From the NCBI GenBank assembly GCA_027622595.1, contig JAQBZZ010000003.1, forward strand, positions 6,014 through 70,013: a stretch of 64,000 nucleotides of DNA, read 5' to 3'. Made by a program: the position numbers and the translations under genes. The notes under the pieces were generated by a model that was not told the origin of the DNA, ran no database searches, and saw only the letters and a list, made by a program, of their open reading frames with translations. Shown piece after piece: positions 1-41,630 of the stretch. The stretch comes from Chloroflexota bacterium (GTDB lineage Bacteria; Chloroflexota; Dehalococcoidia; Lucifugimonadales; UBA2985). The stretch's first letter is position 1. Each line of letters opens with the position of its first letter.

Positions 1-1140
1 TTACTCGAGATACTGCGGGGATGTCCAGGCCACGGGATGCAAGGTTGGTGGCCACCAGAAGGTTTGCATTCCCAGAGCGGAAGCCCTGCATAGCCCGATC
101 CCGCTGAGACTGGCTCATTTTCCCATGGATTGCCGCCACTGTGTAGCTAGATCGGTCTAGAAATTCCGCTACTCGCTCCACACCCCGCTGAGTCCGACAG
201 AATATTATCGTCTGACCTTCGTGGTCTTTTATCAGGAGTTCCTTCAGGCCGGCGTTGCGGTCTCGCATCGCCACTTCATAGTAGATCTGATCCACTCCAG
301 ACACGGTCTGGGACTCTTCGCCAACCCTGATCCACTCTGGGGACTTCAGGTGCTTGGCGACCATTCGACGGATGGGTGTTGGCATAGTGGCCGAAAATAG
401 GGCCGTCTGCCGCGAGTCGGGGACCTGACGCAGTATTTCCTCGATGTCGTCTGCGAAGCCAATGTCCAACATCTCATCGGCCTCGTCAAGGACGGCAAGT
501 TCGACGGTGCGCAGACTAAGGGTGCCTCTTCTCAGATGGTCAAGCATCCGACCGGGGGTTCCAACCACAATATGGGCACCGCGTCTCAGGTCGCGTATCT
601 GGCGGTCGATATTCTGACCCCCATAGATTGCCACGACTCGGATACCTCGGTTTAGCCCAATGCGGGCCAACTCTGCCGTAACCTGAACGGCCAATTCTCT
701 GGTGGGCGTGAGCACCAACGCTTGCACTTCTGATTGAAGAGTATTGATGGACTCAAGCAGAGGTATTCCAAAGGCAGCGGTCTTACCAGTCCCGGTTTGC
801 GCCTGGCCTACAACGTCCTTGCCGTTCAGGAGGGCAGGGATGACCCTGATCTGGATAGGCGTCGGCTGTTCATACCCCATTTCTTGCAGTGCAATGGAAA
901 TTGGGGCAGAAACATCCAACTCTCCAAACTTCTTATCCCTGGGAAGTGGCTCAGATGCCGAGGCGGGGGGTCTTGCTGATTCGTTCCTGGGGGGAAGGCC
1001 GCGGAAGCGGCGAAAATTCGGTCTACTGTAGTTGTTATTATGCGAATCTCGATTTGGTGTAACGTACGACGTAGCTATGAGTATGTACCTTCTTCTTAAA
1101 TTCGTGGCTCGGACAGAGGATTACATGGGGGAACGGGCAC
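1..1140 (-). CDS. DEAD-box ATP-dependent RNA helicase (C-terminal end runs off window start; N-terminal start unresolved)
   Basis: Reverse-strand translation gives KFGELDVSAPISIALQEMGYEQPTPIQ and AQTGTGKTAAFGIPLL (about 780-930) and VLDEADEMLDIGF (455-493). The frame is open up to a TGA at 1165-1167. The only in-frame canonical start upstream of the Q motif is GTG at 1138-1140. Absent from the ORF track because there is no stop inside the window. Confidence 0.85.
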
Positions 1141-7068: not shown

Positions 7069-7097
7069 TTGACAAAAAGAACCCTCTTTCGTACCAT
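7069..7097 (+). promoter_or_regulatory. sigma70-like promoter TTGACA-17-TACCAT
   Basis: -35 at 7069-7074, a 17-nt spacer, and -10 at 7092-7097, upstream of the HAD gene. Confidence 0.5.
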
Positions 7098-7194
7098 GCC
7101 CGTTAGTGTGGTCATGTGTCATCAGCACTGGAGACAATTCCCGACACATGGCGTAATATAGGTTCCAGCACGACTCGAAAGGGGAGGGCCGTAC

Positions 7195-7776
7195 TTGAAG
7201 ATCCTGCTAAGTTTTGATATAGACGGTACCCTGGAGACAGGTGACCCACCCGGGCCTGTGACCCTGGATATGGTGAGAAGAGCTAGGGACATGGGATGCA
7301 TAATCGGCAGCGCCTCCGACCGTTCCATTTCATCCCAGACTGCCATGTGGGAGAGAAGCGAAATCGTAGTGGACTTCGTGGCCAATAAGCATGTCCTGAT
7401 GGAAATAAAGCAGCGGTTTGAGGCAGATTTCTACCTGCACCTGGGAGACAGGGAGTTGGATCGCCAGTTCGCTCGTGAGGCCGGGTTTGATTTCATGTGG
7501 ATGGATGAAGCTGCCTCTGAGCCTTGGATTGCCATACAAAATAGTGGCATAGCACAGGTGCCGGATGGTACAGGTGCTTCCATCATTGAAAAAGGTGTCC
7601 TCAACAGCAGTGGGCCAGCGGGAATAATCAAGCCTCCACAATTCTCCACATCCGATTGCAATGTGGTTAACAAAGAATACAACTGGTGTGAAACACACCA
7701 CAGGCCCATCTGGGAGTGCAAGAAATACGAGGCCGACCTCAAGGCACCACAGAAGGAAATGGACGGTCTTGACTGA
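7195..7776 (+). CDS. HAD-superfamily hydrolase with C-terminal extension
   Basis: Motif I FDIDGTLE at the N-terminus. GGGGAGGG precedes the TTG start. Confidence 0.75.
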   Translation: MKILLSFDIDGTLETGDPPGPVTLDMVRRARDMGCIIGSASDRSISSQTAMWERSEIVVDFVANKHVLMEIKQRFEADFYLHLGDRELDRQFAREAGFDFMWMDEAASEPWIAIQNSGIAQVPDGTGASIIEKGVLNSSGPAGIIKPPQFSTSDCNVVNKEYNWCETHHRPIWECKKYEADLKAPQKEMDGLD

Positions 7777-7875: not shown

Positions 7876-7904
7876 TTGACACGGGTTTAAGGGCGTGCTA
7901 TACT
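7876..7904 (+). promoter_or_regulatory. sigma70-like promoter TTGACA-17-TATACT driving the Cys leader
   Basis: -35 at 7876-7881, a 17-nt spacer, and -10 at 7899-7904. The ATG at 7915 is 10 nt after the -10. Confidence 0.6.
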
Positions 7905-7914
7905 CATGGCTAAG

Positions 7915-7965
7915 ATGTTTACGCATTATTTGTTGGTGAACTGCTGCTGTACCGGTGGACCATAG
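7915..7965 (+). CDS. polycysteine leader peptide MFTHYLLVNCCCTGGP (16 aa)
   Basis: Read directly: atg ttt acg cat tat ttg ttg gtg aac tgc tgc tgt acc ggt gga cca tag. Three consecutive Cys codons at 7942-7950. Located between a promoter and an intrinsic terminator, upstream of the sulfate assimilation genes. Confidence 0.6.
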   Translation: MFTHYLLVNCCCTGGP

Positions 7966-7993
7966 GGGCAGAATATATCTGCTGGAGTGCAGC

Positions 7994-8034
7994 GCGCCCC
8001 CTTCAACTGAGTTTGAAAGGGGCGCTTTTATTTT
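7994..8034 (+). terminator. intrinsic terminator (attenuator) in the leader of the tauE-cysH-cysC-sat operon
   Basis: GCGCCCCCTTC (7994-8004) / GAAAGGGGCGC (8015-8025) with a 7-bp GC core and 1 mismatch, then TTTTATTTT (8026-8034). Confidence 0.7.
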
Positions 8035-8081
8035 GCCCTGTTTTTCTGTAACTACAACTACCGCACTGAATTGGACGACAA

Positions 8082-8863
8082 ATGGAACTACAACCGATAA
8101 TAGTATCAGCCGGACTGGTCATTGGGGTTCTCATCGGGCTCACAGGTATGGGGGGCGGTGCTTTGATGACCCCCTTCCTGATACTCATGGGAGTCCGGCC
8201 CTCCGTCGCCGTTGGCACAGACCTCTTCCAGATGATGTTCACCAAGTCCTTCGGTGCTTGGCAGCATCACCGTCAGGGTACGGTGAACTACCGCGTGGTG
8301 TTACCTCTGATCCGTGGGAGCCTTCCCGGCGCGCTGCTTGGAGTGGTGTTGCTGGTAGTACTCCGGGACAGCTTCGGCATATTCATGGACGTTTTCCTGG
8401 CCCGTCTTCTGGGAGGAGTGCTGACCCTGGTTGGAGTCGCCCTTCTCCTTCGCCTGCTCCTCCGACGGTGGTTTCGTATCGGTTGGAGTCATGGGAAGGG
8501 CTGTCCCTGGAGGGCATGGGAGCCTTCCTTCTTACGGGGCTGGGTGCAGTTGTAGGCTTGCTGGTGGGGCTTACATCGGTTGGCAGCGGCACCCTGTTCA
8601 TCGTAATACTGACCGCCCTGTTTCGCATATCAATGCGCACCATAGTTGGTACCGATGTCGCACACTCCGCTATTCTCACAGCGGGGGCAGGTCTGTTACA
8701 CTTAGGATTCGGGAATGTAGACTTGGTGCTGGCGGCGAATATCCTCGTCGGCTCCATTCCGGGGGTCATCGTGGGGAGCCGCCTCACCGTAAGGGTCCCA
8801 GAAAGAGGGCTCAGGGCCGTGGTGGCACTGGCATTGATGGCCGTGGGATTGAAATTGCTCTAG
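8082..8863 (+). pseudogene. TauE/SafE-family sulfite exporter / anion permease, interrupted by a frameshift near 8460-8515
   Basis: The N-terminal half (LIGLTGMGGGALMTPFLILMGV...AVGTDLF) is in the frame of ORF 8082-8555. The C-terminal half (GLGAVVGLLVGLTSVGSGTLFIVILT...IVGTDVAHS...) is in the frame of ORF 7955-8863. Confidence 0.7.
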
Positions 8864-8876
8864 TTGGAGGAATGAA

Positions 8877-9629
8877 TTGTTAGATCAGGCACGTGAGTTG
8901 ACGGCAGAAGACATGGATAGAATAAACCAGGACTTGGAGAATAAGTCCCCGCAGGAGATATTGGCGTGGGCTTTTGAGAAGTTTGCTCCTGACATTGTGC
9001 TGGCGTGCAGCTTCGGCGGTGGTTCAGGCATGGTGCTGCTGGACATGGCGGCGCAGATATATCCTCAGATCAAGGTGTTCTACCTTGATACCGACTTTCT
9101 CTTCCCGGAGACCTATGCACTCCGTGACGAGGTGGCCAGGCGATACGGCGTCTCGCCGGTGGGCTTCAAGTCCCGCCTCACGGTGGCGGAGCAGGCAGCC
9201 CAGTACGGTGAGGCTCTATGGAGCCGTGACCCCGATCTCTGCTGCGAACTCCGGAAGGTTGAGCCAAACCAGCGCGCCCTTGAGGGAGAACGGGCCTGGA
9301 TATCCGGCCTACGACGTGACCAGTCTCCCACTCGCCGCGACATGCAGGTGGTATCCTGGGACACCCAGTTCAACCTTGTGAAGCTGGCTCCTCTGGCCGC
9401 CTGGGGAGAAGCCCAGGTGATGGACTACGTTCACGAGCACAAAGTGCCGTACAACCCCCTCTACGATCAGGGGTATCTCAGCATCGGGTGCATGCAATGC
9501 ACCCGTGCCGTCAAACCGGGAGAAGACCCTCGGGCCGGTCGCTGGGCCGGTACAGACAAAATAGAATGTGGCATCCACCTGCCTGGGCAGGAGCCCGTAG
9601 AGCAGGGGACTGCCGGAGGTGCAAAGTAA
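8877..9629 (+). CDS. cysH: adenylylsulfate/phosphoadenylylsulfate reductase (CysH, Fe-S type)
   Basis: [31 protein letters not shown] and KIECGIH motifs. GGAGGA precedes the TTG start. Confidence 0.9.
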
Positions 9630-10234
9630 TGACACAGGTTAATCTCAACCGCCAGGATAAGGGATTCACGCTCTGGTTCACCGGGCTCTCAGGAGCTGGT
9701 AAGAGCACCATCGCCGAGAAGGTGTATCAAAACCTCAAAGAGGCGGGCAGGAACGTGGAGATGCTGGACGGCGATGTGGTGCGTACAAACCTGAGCAAGG
9801 GCCTTGGGTTCAGCAAAGAGGACAGGGACACCAACATACGGCGCATAGGGTTTGTGAGCAAACTTTTGAGCCGGAATGGGACAATCGCCATCGTCGCCGC
9901 TATTTCACCCTACAGGGATGTGCGTGATGAAGTGCGCGAAGAGATCGGCGACTTCGTTGAGGTGTTTGTGGAGTGCTCACTGGAGGAGTTGACAAGGCGC
10001 GACGTTAAAGGCCTGTATGAAAAGGCCATTCGCGGAGAGATAAAGAACTTCACAGGCGTATCCGACCCCTACGAGGAGCCTCTGAACCCGGAGGTGGTTG
10101 TCAACTCTCAGCATGAGAGTGTGGAGGAGAGCATTTCCAAGGTGATGGCCAAACTCAACGAGATGGGGTATCTGTCTGCCGACATGGCAACTGGAGGATC
10201 ATCTCCGATGGTGGGCACAGGGAGAAACGCATGA
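9629..10234 (+). CDS. cysC: adenylylsulfate kinase
   Basis: [17 protein letters not shown] (P-loop) and LDGDVVR. The ATG overlaps the cysH stop (TAATG). The track ORF start at 9488 lies inside cysH. Confidence 0.9.
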
Positions 10235-11406
10235 CCACTCAAGTAAAAGATGACATGAAATTGACACCTCCACACGGAGGCACACTGATCAATGGATACG
10301 CCGTGGAAGACCAGACCCAGGCTCTCAGGGAAGAAGCCAGTGGTCTTCCAAGCGTAGTTATCAACGCAAGGCAGCTTTCCGATGCCCACATGATAGCCCA
10401 GGGGGCCTTCAGTCCGCTGCAGGGCTTCATGGGTCATGAGGACTACAGTGCCGTCGTCAAGGACATGCACCTGGCAAATGGCCAACCCTGGCCCATCCCG
10501 GTAACTCTGGCGGTGGACTCCCACCAGGCCGCGGAACTCAAAGAGGGAAAGCGGATTGCTCTGTCCATGGGGGACGGAGAGGTTGTCGGAGTTCTCTCTT
10601 TGCAGGGGAAATTCCGCCGCGATAGGGAGGAAGAGGCCCTGGCGGTCTATCGTACCACAGAGGAACAGCACCCCGGGGTGGCCAACCTGTACCAGGACGG
10701 AGATGTGATTCTGGGTGGAAAGGTAACTCTGTTCCCCGGGCTTCCTGCCTTGGAGGATGGTATCTTACCTCACTACCGCACTCCGTCCCAGACCAGGGAG
10801 GCTATATCTCAGTTGGGATGGTATACTGTGGTCGGTTTTCAGACCCGCAACCCTGTGCACCGTGCCCACGAGTATATCCAGAAGTGCGCTCTGGAGGCGG
10901 TGGACGGCCTTCTGCTTCATCCACTGGTAGGAGAGACCAAGAGCGACGATATCCCCGCTTCTGTGCGCATGCGTTGCTATCAAGTGCTGTTGGAAAATTA
11001 CTACCCACAAGATAGAGTGCTCCTCTCGGTATATCCCGCATTCATGCGCTACGCGGGGCCCAGAGAGGCCATCTTCCATGCTCTGGTGCGCAAGAACTAC
11101 GGTTGCACTCACTTCATCGTTGGGCGAGACCACGCCGGGGTCGGGAACTACTACGGGCCTTACGACGCCCAGCATATCTTCAAGGAGTTCCAGCCGGGGG
11201 CTTTGGGGATAACCCCGCTGTTCTTCGAGAACTCCTTCTTCTGCCGCCAGTGCCACGGGATGGCAACGGAGAAAACCTGCCCTCATGGTGCTGACCACAG
11301 AGTCAGCCTGAGTGGTACACAAGTGCGGGAGATGCTGGCCAAGGGGGAGATGCCGCCGGAGGAGTTCACACGTCCGGAAGTAGCCAAGGTGCTGATGGAG
11401 TCCTAG
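10231..11406 (+). CDS. sat: sulfate adenylyltransferase (ATP sulfurylase)
   Basis: [13 protein letters not shown] and GRDHAGVG motifs. ATGA overlap with cysC. Confidence 0.9.
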
Positions 11407-11440: not shown

Positions 11441-11812
11441 ATGTCTGTAAGTCGAAGAAGCACCCAGGAGTATGCCGATGCGCTGCTGGCGTCGCCCTCG
11501 GCCCGCATATCGGTGACGCTGAAAAGATGGACGACCGGCGTCACCCTGTTGCACAGGCGCAGGGCCATAGCCAGGTGCCACGCTTCCAGGGTCGGCCTGT
11601 GGACGGCCGCATTCATGGCCCAGGCCCTTGGAGTAGACATCCCACCGGTGGGGGAAGCGGTGACCACACAGGTGTCTTCAGGAACCCTCTGGCGTGCCGT
11701 TGGTATCTCCAGCCTTGACCTGCGAAAGAGAGAGGCCCGTGTGCTGCTACAGCGTCTGCTGGAGGAGGCGGAGATGCAGCGGGCCGTCGGCACCGGGGCA
11801 GAATCACACTAG
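11441..11812 (+). CDS. hypothetical ORF (weak)
   Basis: The only sizeable ORF in the 440-bp gap after sat. No recognisable motif and no clear RBS. Confidence 0.2.
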   Translation: MSVSRRSTQEYADALLASPSARISVTLKRWTTGVTLLHRRRAIARCHASRVGLWTAAFMAQALGVDIPPVGEAVTTQVSSGTLWRAVGISSLDLRKREARVLLQRLLEEAEMQRAVGTGAESH

Positions 11813-39605: not shown

Positions 39606-41396
39606 CTAGATGGCGCACTCCCCTTCGCCCCGTTCCACCTTGTACAACACCGTTTTGTCCCAGTCCATGTACGTATCGATGTTCTCTCTGTTGAGGGTTC
39701 CCAAATCCTGGTACTCCCCAATAATGGCCTCAATGGGTCCAACCCCAACCCTATCAACGAATGTGTTGAAGGGTTCTGCCTCCGCCCGGTGCTTCTGGTA
39801 GTAGCCAAGGACGTTGCGTATGATCTCCGGCACCCTCTTTGCGGGGACCTTTCCCTTTGGCCTCAGGCCGATACGTGCCTCCGTCTGGCCATTCAGGTCC
39901 TGGTAGCTGCCCCCGATGAACATCTCGTAGGCAGGGACGTGGTTGCCTTTATCGCCCTTCATGGAAGCGCCGTGGAACCCTATGTTAGCCAGGTGGTGCT
40001 GTCCGCAGGAGTTGGGGCATCCGCTCATCTTGATGTGCAGACTCTTGACCAGGGGGTCGGAGATGTCCATATTGGCGAGTTCCTCGCGTATGGCCTTTCC
40101 AAGACCCATGGCGGAGGTGATGCCAAGCTTGCAGCTATCGGTGCCCGGGCAAGATGTGACGTCGGTTATGGTATTCACCTCTGGTTCGGCCAGGCCTGTT
40201 TCCTTCAGGTCCTTCCACAGGGGGTACAGGGCCTCTTCCCGCACCCAGCGGAAGGCCATGTTCTGCTGCTGTGTGAAGCGGGCCCGGCCGCTGGCGTATT
40301 TCGTGGCGATGTCGGCCAAAAGAGGAAATTGGTGATCTTGAATGTCGCCCTGGGGCAGCTTTACCAGCACCACGTGGAAGCCGGCCTGTTTCTGGGTCTG
40401 GACGTTGGTGTTACGCCACAGCTCGAACTCGCCTCTGTCCCCGTTGGGCGATATCTGGGTTCCAGCGGCTGGGGGCTGGGGCGCGTCGGCCTCCTCGTCG
40501 TCCAGGTACAGCAGGGGTGTTGGGTCAATGGTTTTCTGTGCCCAGGGCCTCTTCAGCTCTTCCTCCACCAGCTTGCGGAACTCGTCAATGCCGATGCGGT
40601 CCACCATGAACTTGATACGGGCCTTCATCCTGTTCTTCCGCTCCTGCTCCGAGGCATCGAATACCCGCAGGACCGCTTCGCTGATGCGCAGGTAGTTATC
40701 CACGGGCACGAACTCGTACAGGGTGGGTGCGATACGGGGCATGATGGCAAGGCCGCCACCGACAACCATCTTGAATCCCTTCTCGATTTGACCGCCCACT
40801 TCGCGGGTCTTTGGTATGAAACCTACATCGTGGATGCTGGTGAGTGCGCAGTCCTTTTCGCAGCCGGAGAACGATGTCTTGATCTTGCGGGGCATACCCT
40901 GGCTTACAGGGTGACGCAAGAAGTACCGGGCGTAGGCACCGGCATAGGGCGTTGTGTCAAAGGGTTCGTCGGCGCAGACACCAGCCAGAGGGCATCCAGT
41001 GACGTTGCGTACCGTATTGCCGCAGGCCTCCCGTGTGGACAGTCCTGCCTGCCCAAGGACACTCAATGCCTGGGGGGTCTGTTCCAGGGGCACGAAGTGG
41101 AACTGCATGTTCTCCCGGGTGGTCACATGGCCCTTTTTCATAGGGGCAAAGTCCCGTGCTATGACTCCCAGGCGCTCCAGTTGTTCCGAAAAGACCTCTC
41201 CAACGGGCAGCTTTACCCTGAGCATGTGGACGTCGGGCTGGCGTTGTCCGTAGACTCCCATCCTGAGACGGAATGCCTGGAATGCTATTGGGTCCCAGTC
41301 ACCCTGAATAAACTCCCCCACCACCCTCTCAAAATTATCAAGCTCTTCTTGGAGAACAGGTAGGATACCCTTCTCATTTATCTTTGCCTGGCTCAT
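39606..41396 (-). CDS. sir: ferredoxin-type sulfite (nitrite/sulfite) reductase, siroheme-[4Fe-4S]
   Basis: TSCPGTDSCKLG and SGCPNSCGQHH cluster-binding motifs. AAGGAGG RBS. Confidence 0.9.
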   Translation of the reverse strand: MSQAKINEKGILPVLQEELDNFERVVGEFIQGDWDPIAFQAFRLRMGVYGQRQPDVHMLRVKLPVGEVFSEQLERLGVIARDFAPMKKGHVTTRENMQFHFVPLEQTPQALSVLGQAGLSTREACGNTVRNVTGCPLAGVCADEPFDTTPYAGAYARYFLRHPVSQGMPRKIKTSFSGCEKDCALTSIHDVGFIPKTREVGGQIEKGFKMVVGGGLAIMPRIAPTLYEFVPVDNYLRISEAVLRVFDASEQERKNRMKARIKFMVDRIGIDEFRKLVEEELKRPWAQKTIDPTPLLYLDDEEADAPQPPAAGTQISPNGDRGEFELWRNTNVQTQKQAGFHVVLVKLPQGDIQDHQFPLLADIATKYASGRARFTQQQNMAFRWVREEALYPLWKDLKETGLAEPEVNTITDVTSCPGTDSCKLGITSAMGLGKAIREELANMDISDPLVKSLHIKMSGCPNSCGQHHLANIGFHGASMKGDKGNHVPAYEMFIGGSYQDLNGQTEARIGLRPKGKVPAKRVPEIIRNVLGYYQKHRAEAEPFNTFVDRVGVGPIEAIIGEYQDLGTLNRENIDTYMDWDKTVLYKVERGEGECAI

Positions 41397-41450: not shown

Positions 41451-41498
41451 ATAAAACAAATCGCCCCCTCAGTGTAGTACACGCTGAAGGGGCGATTT
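41451..41498 (-). terminator. intrinsic terminator (attenuator) in the sir leader
   Basis: Minus strand: AAATCGCCCCTTCAG (41498-41484) / CTGAGGGGGCGATTT (41472-41458) with 1 mismatch, followed by the TTTGTTTTAT tract. Lies 60 nt upstream of the sir ATG. Confidence 0.7.
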
Positions 41499-41532
41499 AT
41501 AGATTTAATGGTTACCAGGTAAGCCCCTTATT

Positions 41533-41592
41533 TTAGGGTCTACAACAGCAGCAATTTATGGTAAATCCTCCGTATGTCTGAAAGGCGTTCAT
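41533..41592 (-). CDS. polycysteine leader peptide MNAFQTYGGFTINCCCCRP (19 aa)
   Basis: Minus strand: atg aac gcc ttt cag aca tac gga gga ttt acc ata aat tgc tgc tgt tgt aga ccc taa. Four consecutive Cys codons at 41553-41542. Confidence 0.65.
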   Translation of the reverse strand: MNAFQTYGGFTINCCCCRP

Positions 41593-41601
41593 TTGTCGTG
41601 A

Positions 41602-41630
41602 ATCTTAGTCCACTTAAGCAACAATGTCAA
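41602..41630 (-). promoter_or_regulatory. sigma70-like promoter TTGACA-17-TAAGAT driving the sir Cys leader
   Basis: -35 at 41630-41625 and -10 at 41607-41602. The ATG at 41592 is 9 nt after the -10. Confidence 0.6.

Follow-up and report, generated by a model that had tools for sequence, protein, structure and literature searches.

Leader-peptide attenuation is a textbook mechanism of control for Trp, His, Leu, Thr, Phe and Ile/Val, and cysteine is, to our knowledge, the conspicuous exception among leader-peptide attenuators. We analysed a 64,000-nt stretch of contig JAQBZZ010000003.1 from a Dehalococcoidia bacterium of the phylum Chloroflexota, hereafter the window, in which two short open reading frames (sORFs) with runs of Cys codons sit between a promoter and sulfate-assimilation genes, one before tauE-cysH-cysC-sat (module 1) and the other before sir (module 2). 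Because of their constrained folding, conservation and gene context, we consider it likely that both units are cysteine-specific, ribosome-mediated (leader-peptide) transcription attenuators of the trpL/hisL kind, translated from leaderless or nearly leaderless mRNA.

Several systems come close to these units. Cys-rich leader peptides were predicted in Actinobacteria by Seliverstov et al. 2005, who found no terminators (PMC1262725). In mycobacteria, Canestrari et al. 2020 reported a response to cysteine for poly-Cys leaderless sORFs; in Ms5788A, the example that they dissected, the Cys tract pairs with the Shine-Dalgarno sequence (SD) of the next gene, giving translational control, and they regarded attenuation mediated by upstream ORFs (uORFs) as previously undescribed for cysteine (10.1101/834739). 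Brewer et al. 2021 predicted a uORF with two Cys codons, followed by a terminator, before cysS in Rhodobacterales (uORFC-8-2; PMC8632094). Leaderless genes have been computationally predicted in Acidobacteria and Chloroflexi (PMC3160421). Literature searches for leader peptides, attenuation and cysteine in Chloroflexota and Acidobacteriota returned nothing relevant, and a terminator-based cysteine attenuator seems, within the literature searched, to be unreported in these phyla. Rfam at gathering thresholds yielded only a tRNA in the whole window, and both leaders, searched at E values up to 10, gave only sub-threshold chance matches, for example PyrG_leader with 18 bits where the cut-off is 65. 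An earlier note on this DNA, made from the sequence alone, had pointed to poly-Cys leaderless sORFs from mycobacteria, correctly, although these act on translation and not via a terminator (10.1101/834739). It had also taken such units to be undescribed for this kind of genome or as terminator-based attenuators of cysH, sat and sir, which holds within the literature searched; a Cys-codon uORF with a terminator had already been predicted before cysS in Rhodobacterales (PMC8632094).

The window units resemble the classical attenuators, namely trpL and hisL (E. coli, Salmonella) and the leu, thr, phe and ilv leaders, in having a short ORF carrying a string of codons for the pathway's final product, an intrinsic terminator ahead of the first structural gene, a region 2 that a ribosome on the stop codon is predicted to mask and one stalled on the regulatory codons to leave free and, in sir-type leaders, a weaker hairpin between regions 1 and 2 (1:2 hairpin). 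Unlike those attenuators, they would sense cysteine, their leader peptide apparently starts 8-10 nt past the -10 hexamer without an SD, their antiterminator, in which a G-run meets a C-run, is very short, and their host phyla, Chloroflexota and Acidobacteriota, are without reported amino-acid attenuators in the literature searched. With Ms5788A and the mycobacterial 'Cys ribulon' they share apparently leaderless sORFs with at least two consecutive Cys codons near the stop, independent leaders that precede several cysteine or sulfur operons per genome and form a regulon, and putative sensing by ribosome stalling. In contrast to the mycobacterial class, every sORF here has an intrinsic terminator behind it and no pairing links the Cys tract to a downstream SD, which places the window units outside the defining translational feature of that class; there is no sequence relationship between the two sets of sORFs either. 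The uORFC-8-2 motif (PMC8632094) likewise has tandem Cys codons, a terminator stem and a U-run, and is predicted to be a ribosome-mediated attenuator. It controls a tRNA synthetase gene, whereas the window units precede sulfate-assimilation genes; its two Cys codons, at positions 14-15, lie inside the first stem, whereas those of the window lie outside both the terminator and the first stem; and it is confined to alphaproteobacteria, with no leaderless start described. The window units would thus work like classical attenuators, share the leaderless poly-Cys sensor with mycobacteria and be distinct from the cysS motif.

Module 1 consists of the following elements:

7876-7904, plus strand: promoter, with TTGACA at 7876-7881, a 17-nt spacer and the TG-extended -10 element TGcTATACT at 7896-7904
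7915-7965, plus strand: leader sORF MFTHYLLVNCCCTGGP followed by TAG, 16 codons, with the ATG at 7915-7917
7942-7950, plus strand: regulatory Cys codons TGC TGC TGT, the proposed site of ribosome stalling when Cys-tRNA is scarce
7963-7969, plus strand: stop codon TAG (7963-7965) fused to GGGGC (7965-7969), the putative upstream strand of the antiterminator (region 2)
7970-7993, plus strand: spacer with two small hairpins, AGA/UCU at 7970-7980 and GCUG/CAGC at 7981-7993, in the constrained minimum free energy (MFE) fold
7994-8034, plus strand: intrinsic terminator, a hairpin at 7994-8025 followed by TTTTATTTT at 8026-8034, called from RNAfold and conservation
8035-8039, plus strand: GCCCU 3' of the T-tract, which could pair with the post-stop GGGGC in read-through RNA according to MFE folds

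The promoter matches the consensus at 11 of 12 positions, with the TG at 7896-7897 forming an extended -10, and the region holds four promoter-like sites, compared with 1.2 +/- 1.0 in shuffles. Since the ATG at 7915 lies only 10 nt 3' of the -10 hexamer, there is no room for an SD, and the mRNA is probably leaderless or nearly so. An alternative in-frame ATG at 7906 was rejected as the start, as it lies 1 nt past the -10 and is absent from the relatives. The G of the TAG stop doubles as the first G of GGGGC, whose complement GCCCC (7996-8000) forms part of the terminator 5' arm and is therefore common to terminator and antiterminator. The two spacer hairpins are enclosed by the antiterminator helix, and the spacer sequence is conserved in part only. 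The terminator stem, GCGCCCCCTTCAA / TTGAAAGGGGCGC, comprises 13 pairs with one C.A mismatch (-26.2 kcal/mol). A simple consensus terminator scan lists neither module's hairpin, in module 1 probably because the mismatch breaks the stem; its silence was rejected as proof of no terminator, given that RNAfold and conservation in the relatives are clear.

Module 2 has the same layout on the minus strand:

41630-41602, minus strand: promoter, with TTGACA at 41630-41625, 17 nt and TAAGAT at 41607-41602
41592-41533, minus strand: leader sORF MNAFQTYGGFTINCCCCRP followed by TAA, with the ATG at 41592-41590 and the TAA at 41535-41533
41553-41542, minus strand: four consecutive Cys codons, from the codon-run search
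41529-41523, minus strand: AAGGGGC, 3 nt past the stop codon, the putative upstream strand of the antiterminator
41500-41453, minus strand: intrinsic terminator with TTTGTTTT, hairpin of about -29 kcal/mol (-28.8)

Here the promoter matches 10 of 12 consensus positions and is kept in 16 relatives. The ATG lies 9 nt past the -10, and the sORF has 19 codons, including a Pro codon CCC (41538-41536) that is able to pair with the post-stop G-run as a 1:2 hairpin. In the fold with a stall at the Cys codons, AAGGGGC pairs with GCCCCUU of the terminator arm. The upstream neighbour, a PCMT methyltransferase gene, is divergent, and the hairpin therefore cannot be its terminator. The earlier note had listed the module 1 promoter, the ATG without an SD, the three Cys codons, the fusion of TAG to GGGGC with its complement, the small hairpins between stop and terminator, the terminator with its T-tract, and a second module upstream of sir at 41451-41630; every one of these is present, the last with all elements on the minus strand.

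Within the window, the six frames hold 14 runs of at least three Cys codons, and only those of modules 1 and 2 fall in a short ATG-started ORF right behind a consensus promoter, the other twelve being out of frame and without promoter context. The pattern TTGAYN-16..18-TAnnnT-5..11-RTG has only five sites on both strands, of which two are the poly-Cys sORFs. No separate promoter is apparent between the terminator and tauE, nor between the terminator and sir.

Relatives were found through Sat and Sir searches; a cysH search gave only two informative Chloroflexota relatives, because the method needs shared exact 8-mers. The closest relatives of CysH, Sir and Sat come from Dehalococcoidia (Chloroflexota) metagenome-assembled genomes (MAGs), at about 80% amino-acid identity, which puts the window in this class. 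In all, 24 leaders were compared, namely the two window modules and 22 homologous leaders, which were aligned as 17 sir-type leaders (alignment A1) and seven module-1-type leaders (alignment A2). The layout of module 1 recurs before tauE-cysH-(cysC)-sat in six loci (L001, L126, L127, L128, L130 and L131; Sat 72-82% identical). All have TTGACA-17-TGnTAnnnT, 8-10 nt, an ATG and a sORF of always 16 codons, the -35, the TG and the TAnnnT being identical across the seven leaders of A2. The sORF ends in C[C/S/T]C-[T/R]-G-x-[P/S/T], with codons 10-12 reading CCC, CSC or CTC and showing synonymous TGC/TGT changes. The first nine codons and the spacer diverge freely, and CATAGGGG, in which TAG is fused to GGGG, is unchanged in all seven. 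In the terminator, 96% of cells over the seven leaders are standard pairs, with only G-U/A-U wobble changes.

Among 18 Dehalococcoidia loci with a Sir identity of at least 74%, 16 have the layout of module 2 ahead of sir. The sORFs of these relatives have 13-14 codons and end in two to four Cys codons plus [R/N/K]-Pro-stop; a run of three to five G follows 2-5 nt past the stop, then about 30 variable nt and the terminator. The GGG of the post-stop run is invariant in the 17 sir leaders, all of which end in [R/N/K]-Pro-stop with the Pro codon always CCC (window 41538-41533; A1 columns 52-60). The terminator stems vary by sub-group, TCAG/CTGA as against GAAGC/GCTTC (CGCCCCCTCAG/CTGAGGGGCG vs CCCCCCGAAGC/GCTTGCGGGGGG), yet stay paired, and one GC-to-AU compensatory pair was found. 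The search of relatives proposed in the earlier note, for sORFs with Cys runs and a terminator before cys genes, thus returned six module-1-type loci and 16 of 18 sir-type loci, and the layout is conserved in more than 20 related loci. In the SAR202-type loci L086 and L093 (Sir 76% identical, AT-rich), neither a sORF nor a terminator was found in the 250 nt before sir, and a group with Sir about 60% identical likewise has no sORF before sir. L086 and L093 share a different conserved upstream sequence, ...gatgtataatgca...aaatgcattttgcatt...

In both leader types, the constant elements are the start codon, Cys codons, stop context, post-stop G-run and terminator, with drift in the remainder of the peptide and in the spacer. 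Across the 24 leaders, at least two Cys codons are retained in all, and the distance from the -10 to the ATG is 8-10 nt in all, making an SD impossible. The reading frame of the sORF is kept in every leader, and in L081 and L124 the Cys run is shortened by deletion of a whole codon. The synonymous TGC/TGT changes, the whole-codon deletion and the strictly kept frame argue for selection acting on translation and not on the RNA only. Five other MAGs carry both leader types (L082/L127, L092/L001, L095/L128, L084/L130 and L124/L131), and the paired leaders therefore behave as a small regulon. Weakened Cys runs affect both leaders of two genomes, L082 and L127 in MAG RHO1_bin_9 and L092 and L001 in MAG B4_bin.23, with CSC and CTC in one and CC and CSC in the other, while the remaining genomes have three or four Cys codons in both leaders. 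This suggests that the sensitivity of the putative attenuators may be tuned genome-wide.

The earlier note had put forward a geometry in which a stalled ribosome leaves GGGGC free and a ribosome at the stop codon covers it, and had proposed folding under constraints that mimic ribosome positions. Nascent leaders were folded up to the point where the 3' arm of the terminator emerges, that is, before this arm is available, with the nucleotides held single-stranded up to 13 nt beyond the first base of the A-site codon. When the ribosome is placed at the last Cys codon, the MFE folds of all 24 leaders show the G-run bound to the C-run in the 5' arm of the terminator, 3-10 nt of that arm being paired with the 16 nt that begin at the stop codon. 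A ribosome at the stop codon reduces this contact to 0-2 nt in the 24 leaders. The fold energies are -14.2 (Cys stall) vs -5.7 kcal/mol (stop codon) for module 1, and -10.4 vs -2.0 for module 2. The modelled folds hence agree with the geometry of the earlier note in 24 of 24 leaders, with an antiterminator predicted on a Cys stall and lost at the stop codon, and they show the choice between 2:3 and 3:4 pairing known from the trp attenuator. RNAalifold also returned a CCCU/GGGG hairpin, formed by the Pro codon CCC and the first nucleotide of the stop with the G-run, in 17 of 17 sir-type leaders. The invariant Pro(CCC)-stop could reflect this 1:2 pairing, slow peptide release at Pro-stop, or both; such slow release is known from E. 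coli, and here it would keep the G-run covered longer.

Taken together, the elements in the sequence, the degree to which they are conserved, the neighbouring genes and the folds that exclude one another, all observed in silico, lead us to infer a transcription start, leaderless translation, stalling, termination and a response to cysteine along the following lines. A strong sigma-70-type promoter would start the transcript at the AUG of the sORF or 1-3 nt from it, and a 70S ribosome would initiate there without an SD. When cysteine is plentiful, the ribosome would pass the three or four Cys codons and occupy the stop codon, covering the G-run, which overlaps the stop in module 1 and lies 3-5 nt beyond it in module 2. 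The C-run of the 5' arm would then be free to pair with the 3' arm, and polymerase would terminate at the U-tract about 60-70 nt past the stop. When cysteine is scarce, with little charged tRNA-Cys, the ribosome would stall on the Cys codons, 13-21 nt 5' of the G-run; the exposed G-run would capture the C-run once this is transcribed, in an antiterminator of 5 bp (module 1) or 7 bp (module 2), and the blocked terminator would allow read-through into tauE-cysH-cysC-sat or sir, respectively. The weak 1:2 hairpin of sir-type leaders would favour termination when no ribosome is present. Both leaders would read one signal and form a small, ribosome-sensed cysteine regulon.

Units with the same logic and unrelated peptides were found in distant Chloroflexota loci, namely L002, where the unit lies directly before cysH, L133, L153, with the leader MVTRRQSDICCCT-TAG-GGGC, and L187. 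A similar unit precedes sir-cysG-cysH in L019 (Acidobacteriota). A pattern scan of one genome per species in 185,579 species, with TTGACA-N17-TAnnnT-N8-10-ATG-N18-45-(TGY)3, gave at least 120 loci, with at least 49 in-frame sORFs of up to 50 codons. Among the matches listed, to which the following counts also refer, most sORFs have a strong terminator 55-65 nt past the stop, and the hosts are mainly Acidobacteriota (Acidobacteriaceae, Terriglobia and Pyrinomonadaceae) and Chloroflexota. The first downstream ORFs, 33 in number, were scanned with Pfam, and 24 of them belong to sulfur assimilation or cysteine synthesis. The families found were:

NIR_SIR (sulfite reductase): 13 of 33
1-Cys peroxiredoxin (AhpC-TSA): 7 of 33
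PALP (cysteine synthase fold): 4 of 33
PAPS_reduct: 3 of 33
TauE: 2 of 33
sulfate-binding protein (SBP_bac_11): 1 of 33
JAB: 1 of 33

In an acidobacterial family exemplified by L281, the 3' part of the sORF contains ACUGGCG, the strand that complements the terminator arm, so that leaders of this type appear to use the same logic with a different geometry. On whether leaderless poly-Cys sORFs with terminators make up an undescribed, phylum-spanning 'cysteine ribulon' (Chloroflexota/Dehalococcoidia, Acidobacteriota and some Bacteroidota), with the ribosome as the cysteine sensor, we regard the case as evenly balanced.

Some further observations concern individual leaders of these kinds. The acidobacterial family of leaderless poly-Cys sORFs is large (L206-L325; for instance L281, 1-260, minus strand) and ends in ...STGAGRLLT-stop followed by the terminator. 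The more distant Dehalococcoidia MAG represented by L187 carries, at 2292-2730, two tandem sORF and terminator units (...SCSCSCCCCTT... and ...SCACCCACCCTP...) before tauE-cysH-cysC-sat. A third leader type, MSDAMCLCSCCCCPEARGPSASTCAQLTT with a terminator, precedes a PAPS-reductase-like gene in L283 (5313-5480; OZ242025.1) and L325; L283 shares its genome with L088, a Dehalococcoidia genome that also bears a sir-type leader. The peroxiredoxin-linked case L252 comes from Chitinophaga (Bacteroidota).

Several points weigh against reading the two units as attenuators. The transcription start site, the short terminated transcript and the dependence on cysteine are all deduced from sequence, as is leaderless translation in Dehalococcoidia. 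The antiterminator has only 5-7 bp and shows no covariation, because it is built of invariant G and C. Shuffled spacers still pair at least 4 nt of the arm with the post-stop segment in 9-73% of cases per sequence (57 of 100 for module 1); such single-sequence shuffles are not discriminating, and we therefore claim no significance for the 5-bp helix itself, the support for the antiterminator coming from positional conservation in two independent leader families. The terminator is far stronger than the antiterminator (-26 against about -9 kcal/mol of extra folding energy), as in trp, and the outcome therefore depends on kinetics. With a stall on the first Cys codon, the 1:2 hairpin is free in L083, L095 and L110, and no antiterminator is predicted. 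Lastly, tauE, the first gene behind module 1, is frameshifted in this assembly: in tblastn with the intact 260-aa TauE of L128 it is split across two frames, with the break near 8460-8490 and 72-73% identity on both sides, as the result of either an assembly error or a pseudogene.

Four other explanations were weighed. The sORF might sense cysteine by stalling and act, as in mycobacteria, on translation or mRNA stability, the stalled ribosome opening a structure that hides the downstream ribosome-binding site and the hairpin with its U-tract not being the regulated step. Ms5788A, the one poly-Cys leaderless sORF studied by experiment, works in this way (10.1101/834739), and in the full-length fold of module 2 the SD of sir pairs with sORF codons 2-4. 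However, those codons vary in the relatives, and the pairing was rejected as a conserved feature; the Cys tract is not complementary to the ribosome-binding regions of tauE or sir, and every leader has a GC-rich hairpin and U-tract between the sORF and the first gene, all of which makes a translational output unlikely. Regulation of the terminator by a protein or small molecule that binds the leader RNA, in the manner of a riboswitch or TRAP, with the poly-Cys ORF incidental or secondary, strikes us as slightly less probable still. Sulfur metabolism is controlled by riboswitches or T-boxes in other phyla, going by the S-box references cited in PMC1262725, and the SAR202 relatives L086 and L093 have their own sORF-free leader before sir. 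Yet the roughly 30 poorly conserved nt between stop and terminator are too few for an aptamer, even the permissive Rfam search matched no family, and the conserved item is the frame of the Cys codons, synonymous changes included, unrelated peptide families having only the Cys run in common.

That the sORFs are genes for functional Cys-rich micropeptides with metal or redox activity, co-expressed with sulfur genes, the hairpin merely ending a short transcript, would fit the conservation of the Cys runs and of some C-terminal residues (CCCTGxP; CCCC[R/N/K]P), as well as the seven peroxiredoxins among the 33 downstream genes scanned in the matches listed. We give this only a slim chance: the N-terminal halves are unconserved even between close relatives, the Cys run is reduced to CSC, CTC or CC in some genomes, and the conserved C-terminal codons are themselves RNA pairing partners (CCC with GGG; TAG fused to GGGG). 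Moreover, the operons have no apparent promoter of their own between the terminator and tauE or sir, and the sORF-terminator layout stands before sulfur-assimilation genes across phyla with unrelated peptides. Chance co-occurrence of a promoter-like site, a short TGY-repeat ORF and a hairpin could draw on the fact that three TGY codons in a row turn up 14 times when all six frames of the window are counted, but only the two intergenic cases combine a promoter, an ATG and a terminator, and both precede sulfate-assimilation genes; the layout is kept in the more than 20 related loci and recurs in the at least 49 pattern matches, with mostly sulfur-related genes downstream. The comparative data refute chance, whose probability we take to be negligible.

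If cysteine-specific leader-peptide attenuation is the right reading, it would fill the long-standing gap of a classical cysteine attenuator, and trp-type attenuation could run from leaderless mRNA, where a tight timing of ribosome and polymerase would be settable. A cysteine ribulon of this kind would govern transcription for assimilatory sulfate reduction (sat, cysC, cysH, sir and tauE, along with a sulfate-binding protein) as well as for cysteine synthase, and would extend to 1-Cys peroxiredoxins. It would also offer a first handle on the regulation of sulfur assimilation in Dehalococcoidia/SAR202-like Chloroflexota and in Acidobacteriota, which are abundant, mostly uncultured and little studied in their gene regulation. 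The motif (a promoter, an ATG within 10 nt, a Cys run and a terminator about 60 nt past the stop) is simple enough for automatic annotation and could predict cysteine-regulated genes in metagenomes, such as the unexpected link to 1-Cys peroxiredoxins.

The genes behind the two modules, with domains called by Pfam, are as follows:

8082-8883, plus strand: tauE, TSUP-family sulfite/anion exporter, the first gene behind module 1 (TauE, 1.1e-25)
8877-9629, plus strand: cysH, APS/PAPS reductase (PAPS_reduct, 3.2e-49)
9488-10234 as listed, plus strand: cysC, APS kinase (APS_kinase, 1.9e-63, domain from residue 58)
10231-11406, plus strand: sat, ATP sulfurylase (ATP-sulfurylase, 1.1e-100, plus PUA_2)
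39606-41396, minus strand: sir, assimilatory sulfite reductase (NIR_SIR, 1.1e-55, plus NIR_SIR_ferr), with a strong SD, AAGGAGG

The true start of cysC probably lies near 9630-9660. Directly 3' of sat, a 123-aa ORF without a Pfam match (11441-11812, plus strand) is 80% identical between the window and L128 (6198-6569) and occupies the same position in L001 (6636-7007); it probably belongs to the operon as an uncharacterised gene.

In module 1, a further pairing may enclose the terminator in read-through RNA: the post-stop segment GGGGCAGAA (7965-7975) can pair with UUUUGCCC (8029-8039) past the terminator, in a helix that we call P0. The sequence TTTGCCC 3' of the U-tract is conserved at the same positions in L126-L131, and L001 has one C-G to U-A change in the helix; 82% of the cells of P0 are paired in A2, which is no different from shuffles. 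Upstream of module 1, at 7069-7161 on the plus strand, a GTG lies 10 nt past a further consensus promoter (TTGACA-17-TACCAT) and opens a 17-codon ORF with a single Cys and no Cys run, preceding a DUF7124-like ORF at 7195-7776. Judging from this spacing, the GTG may be another leaderless start.

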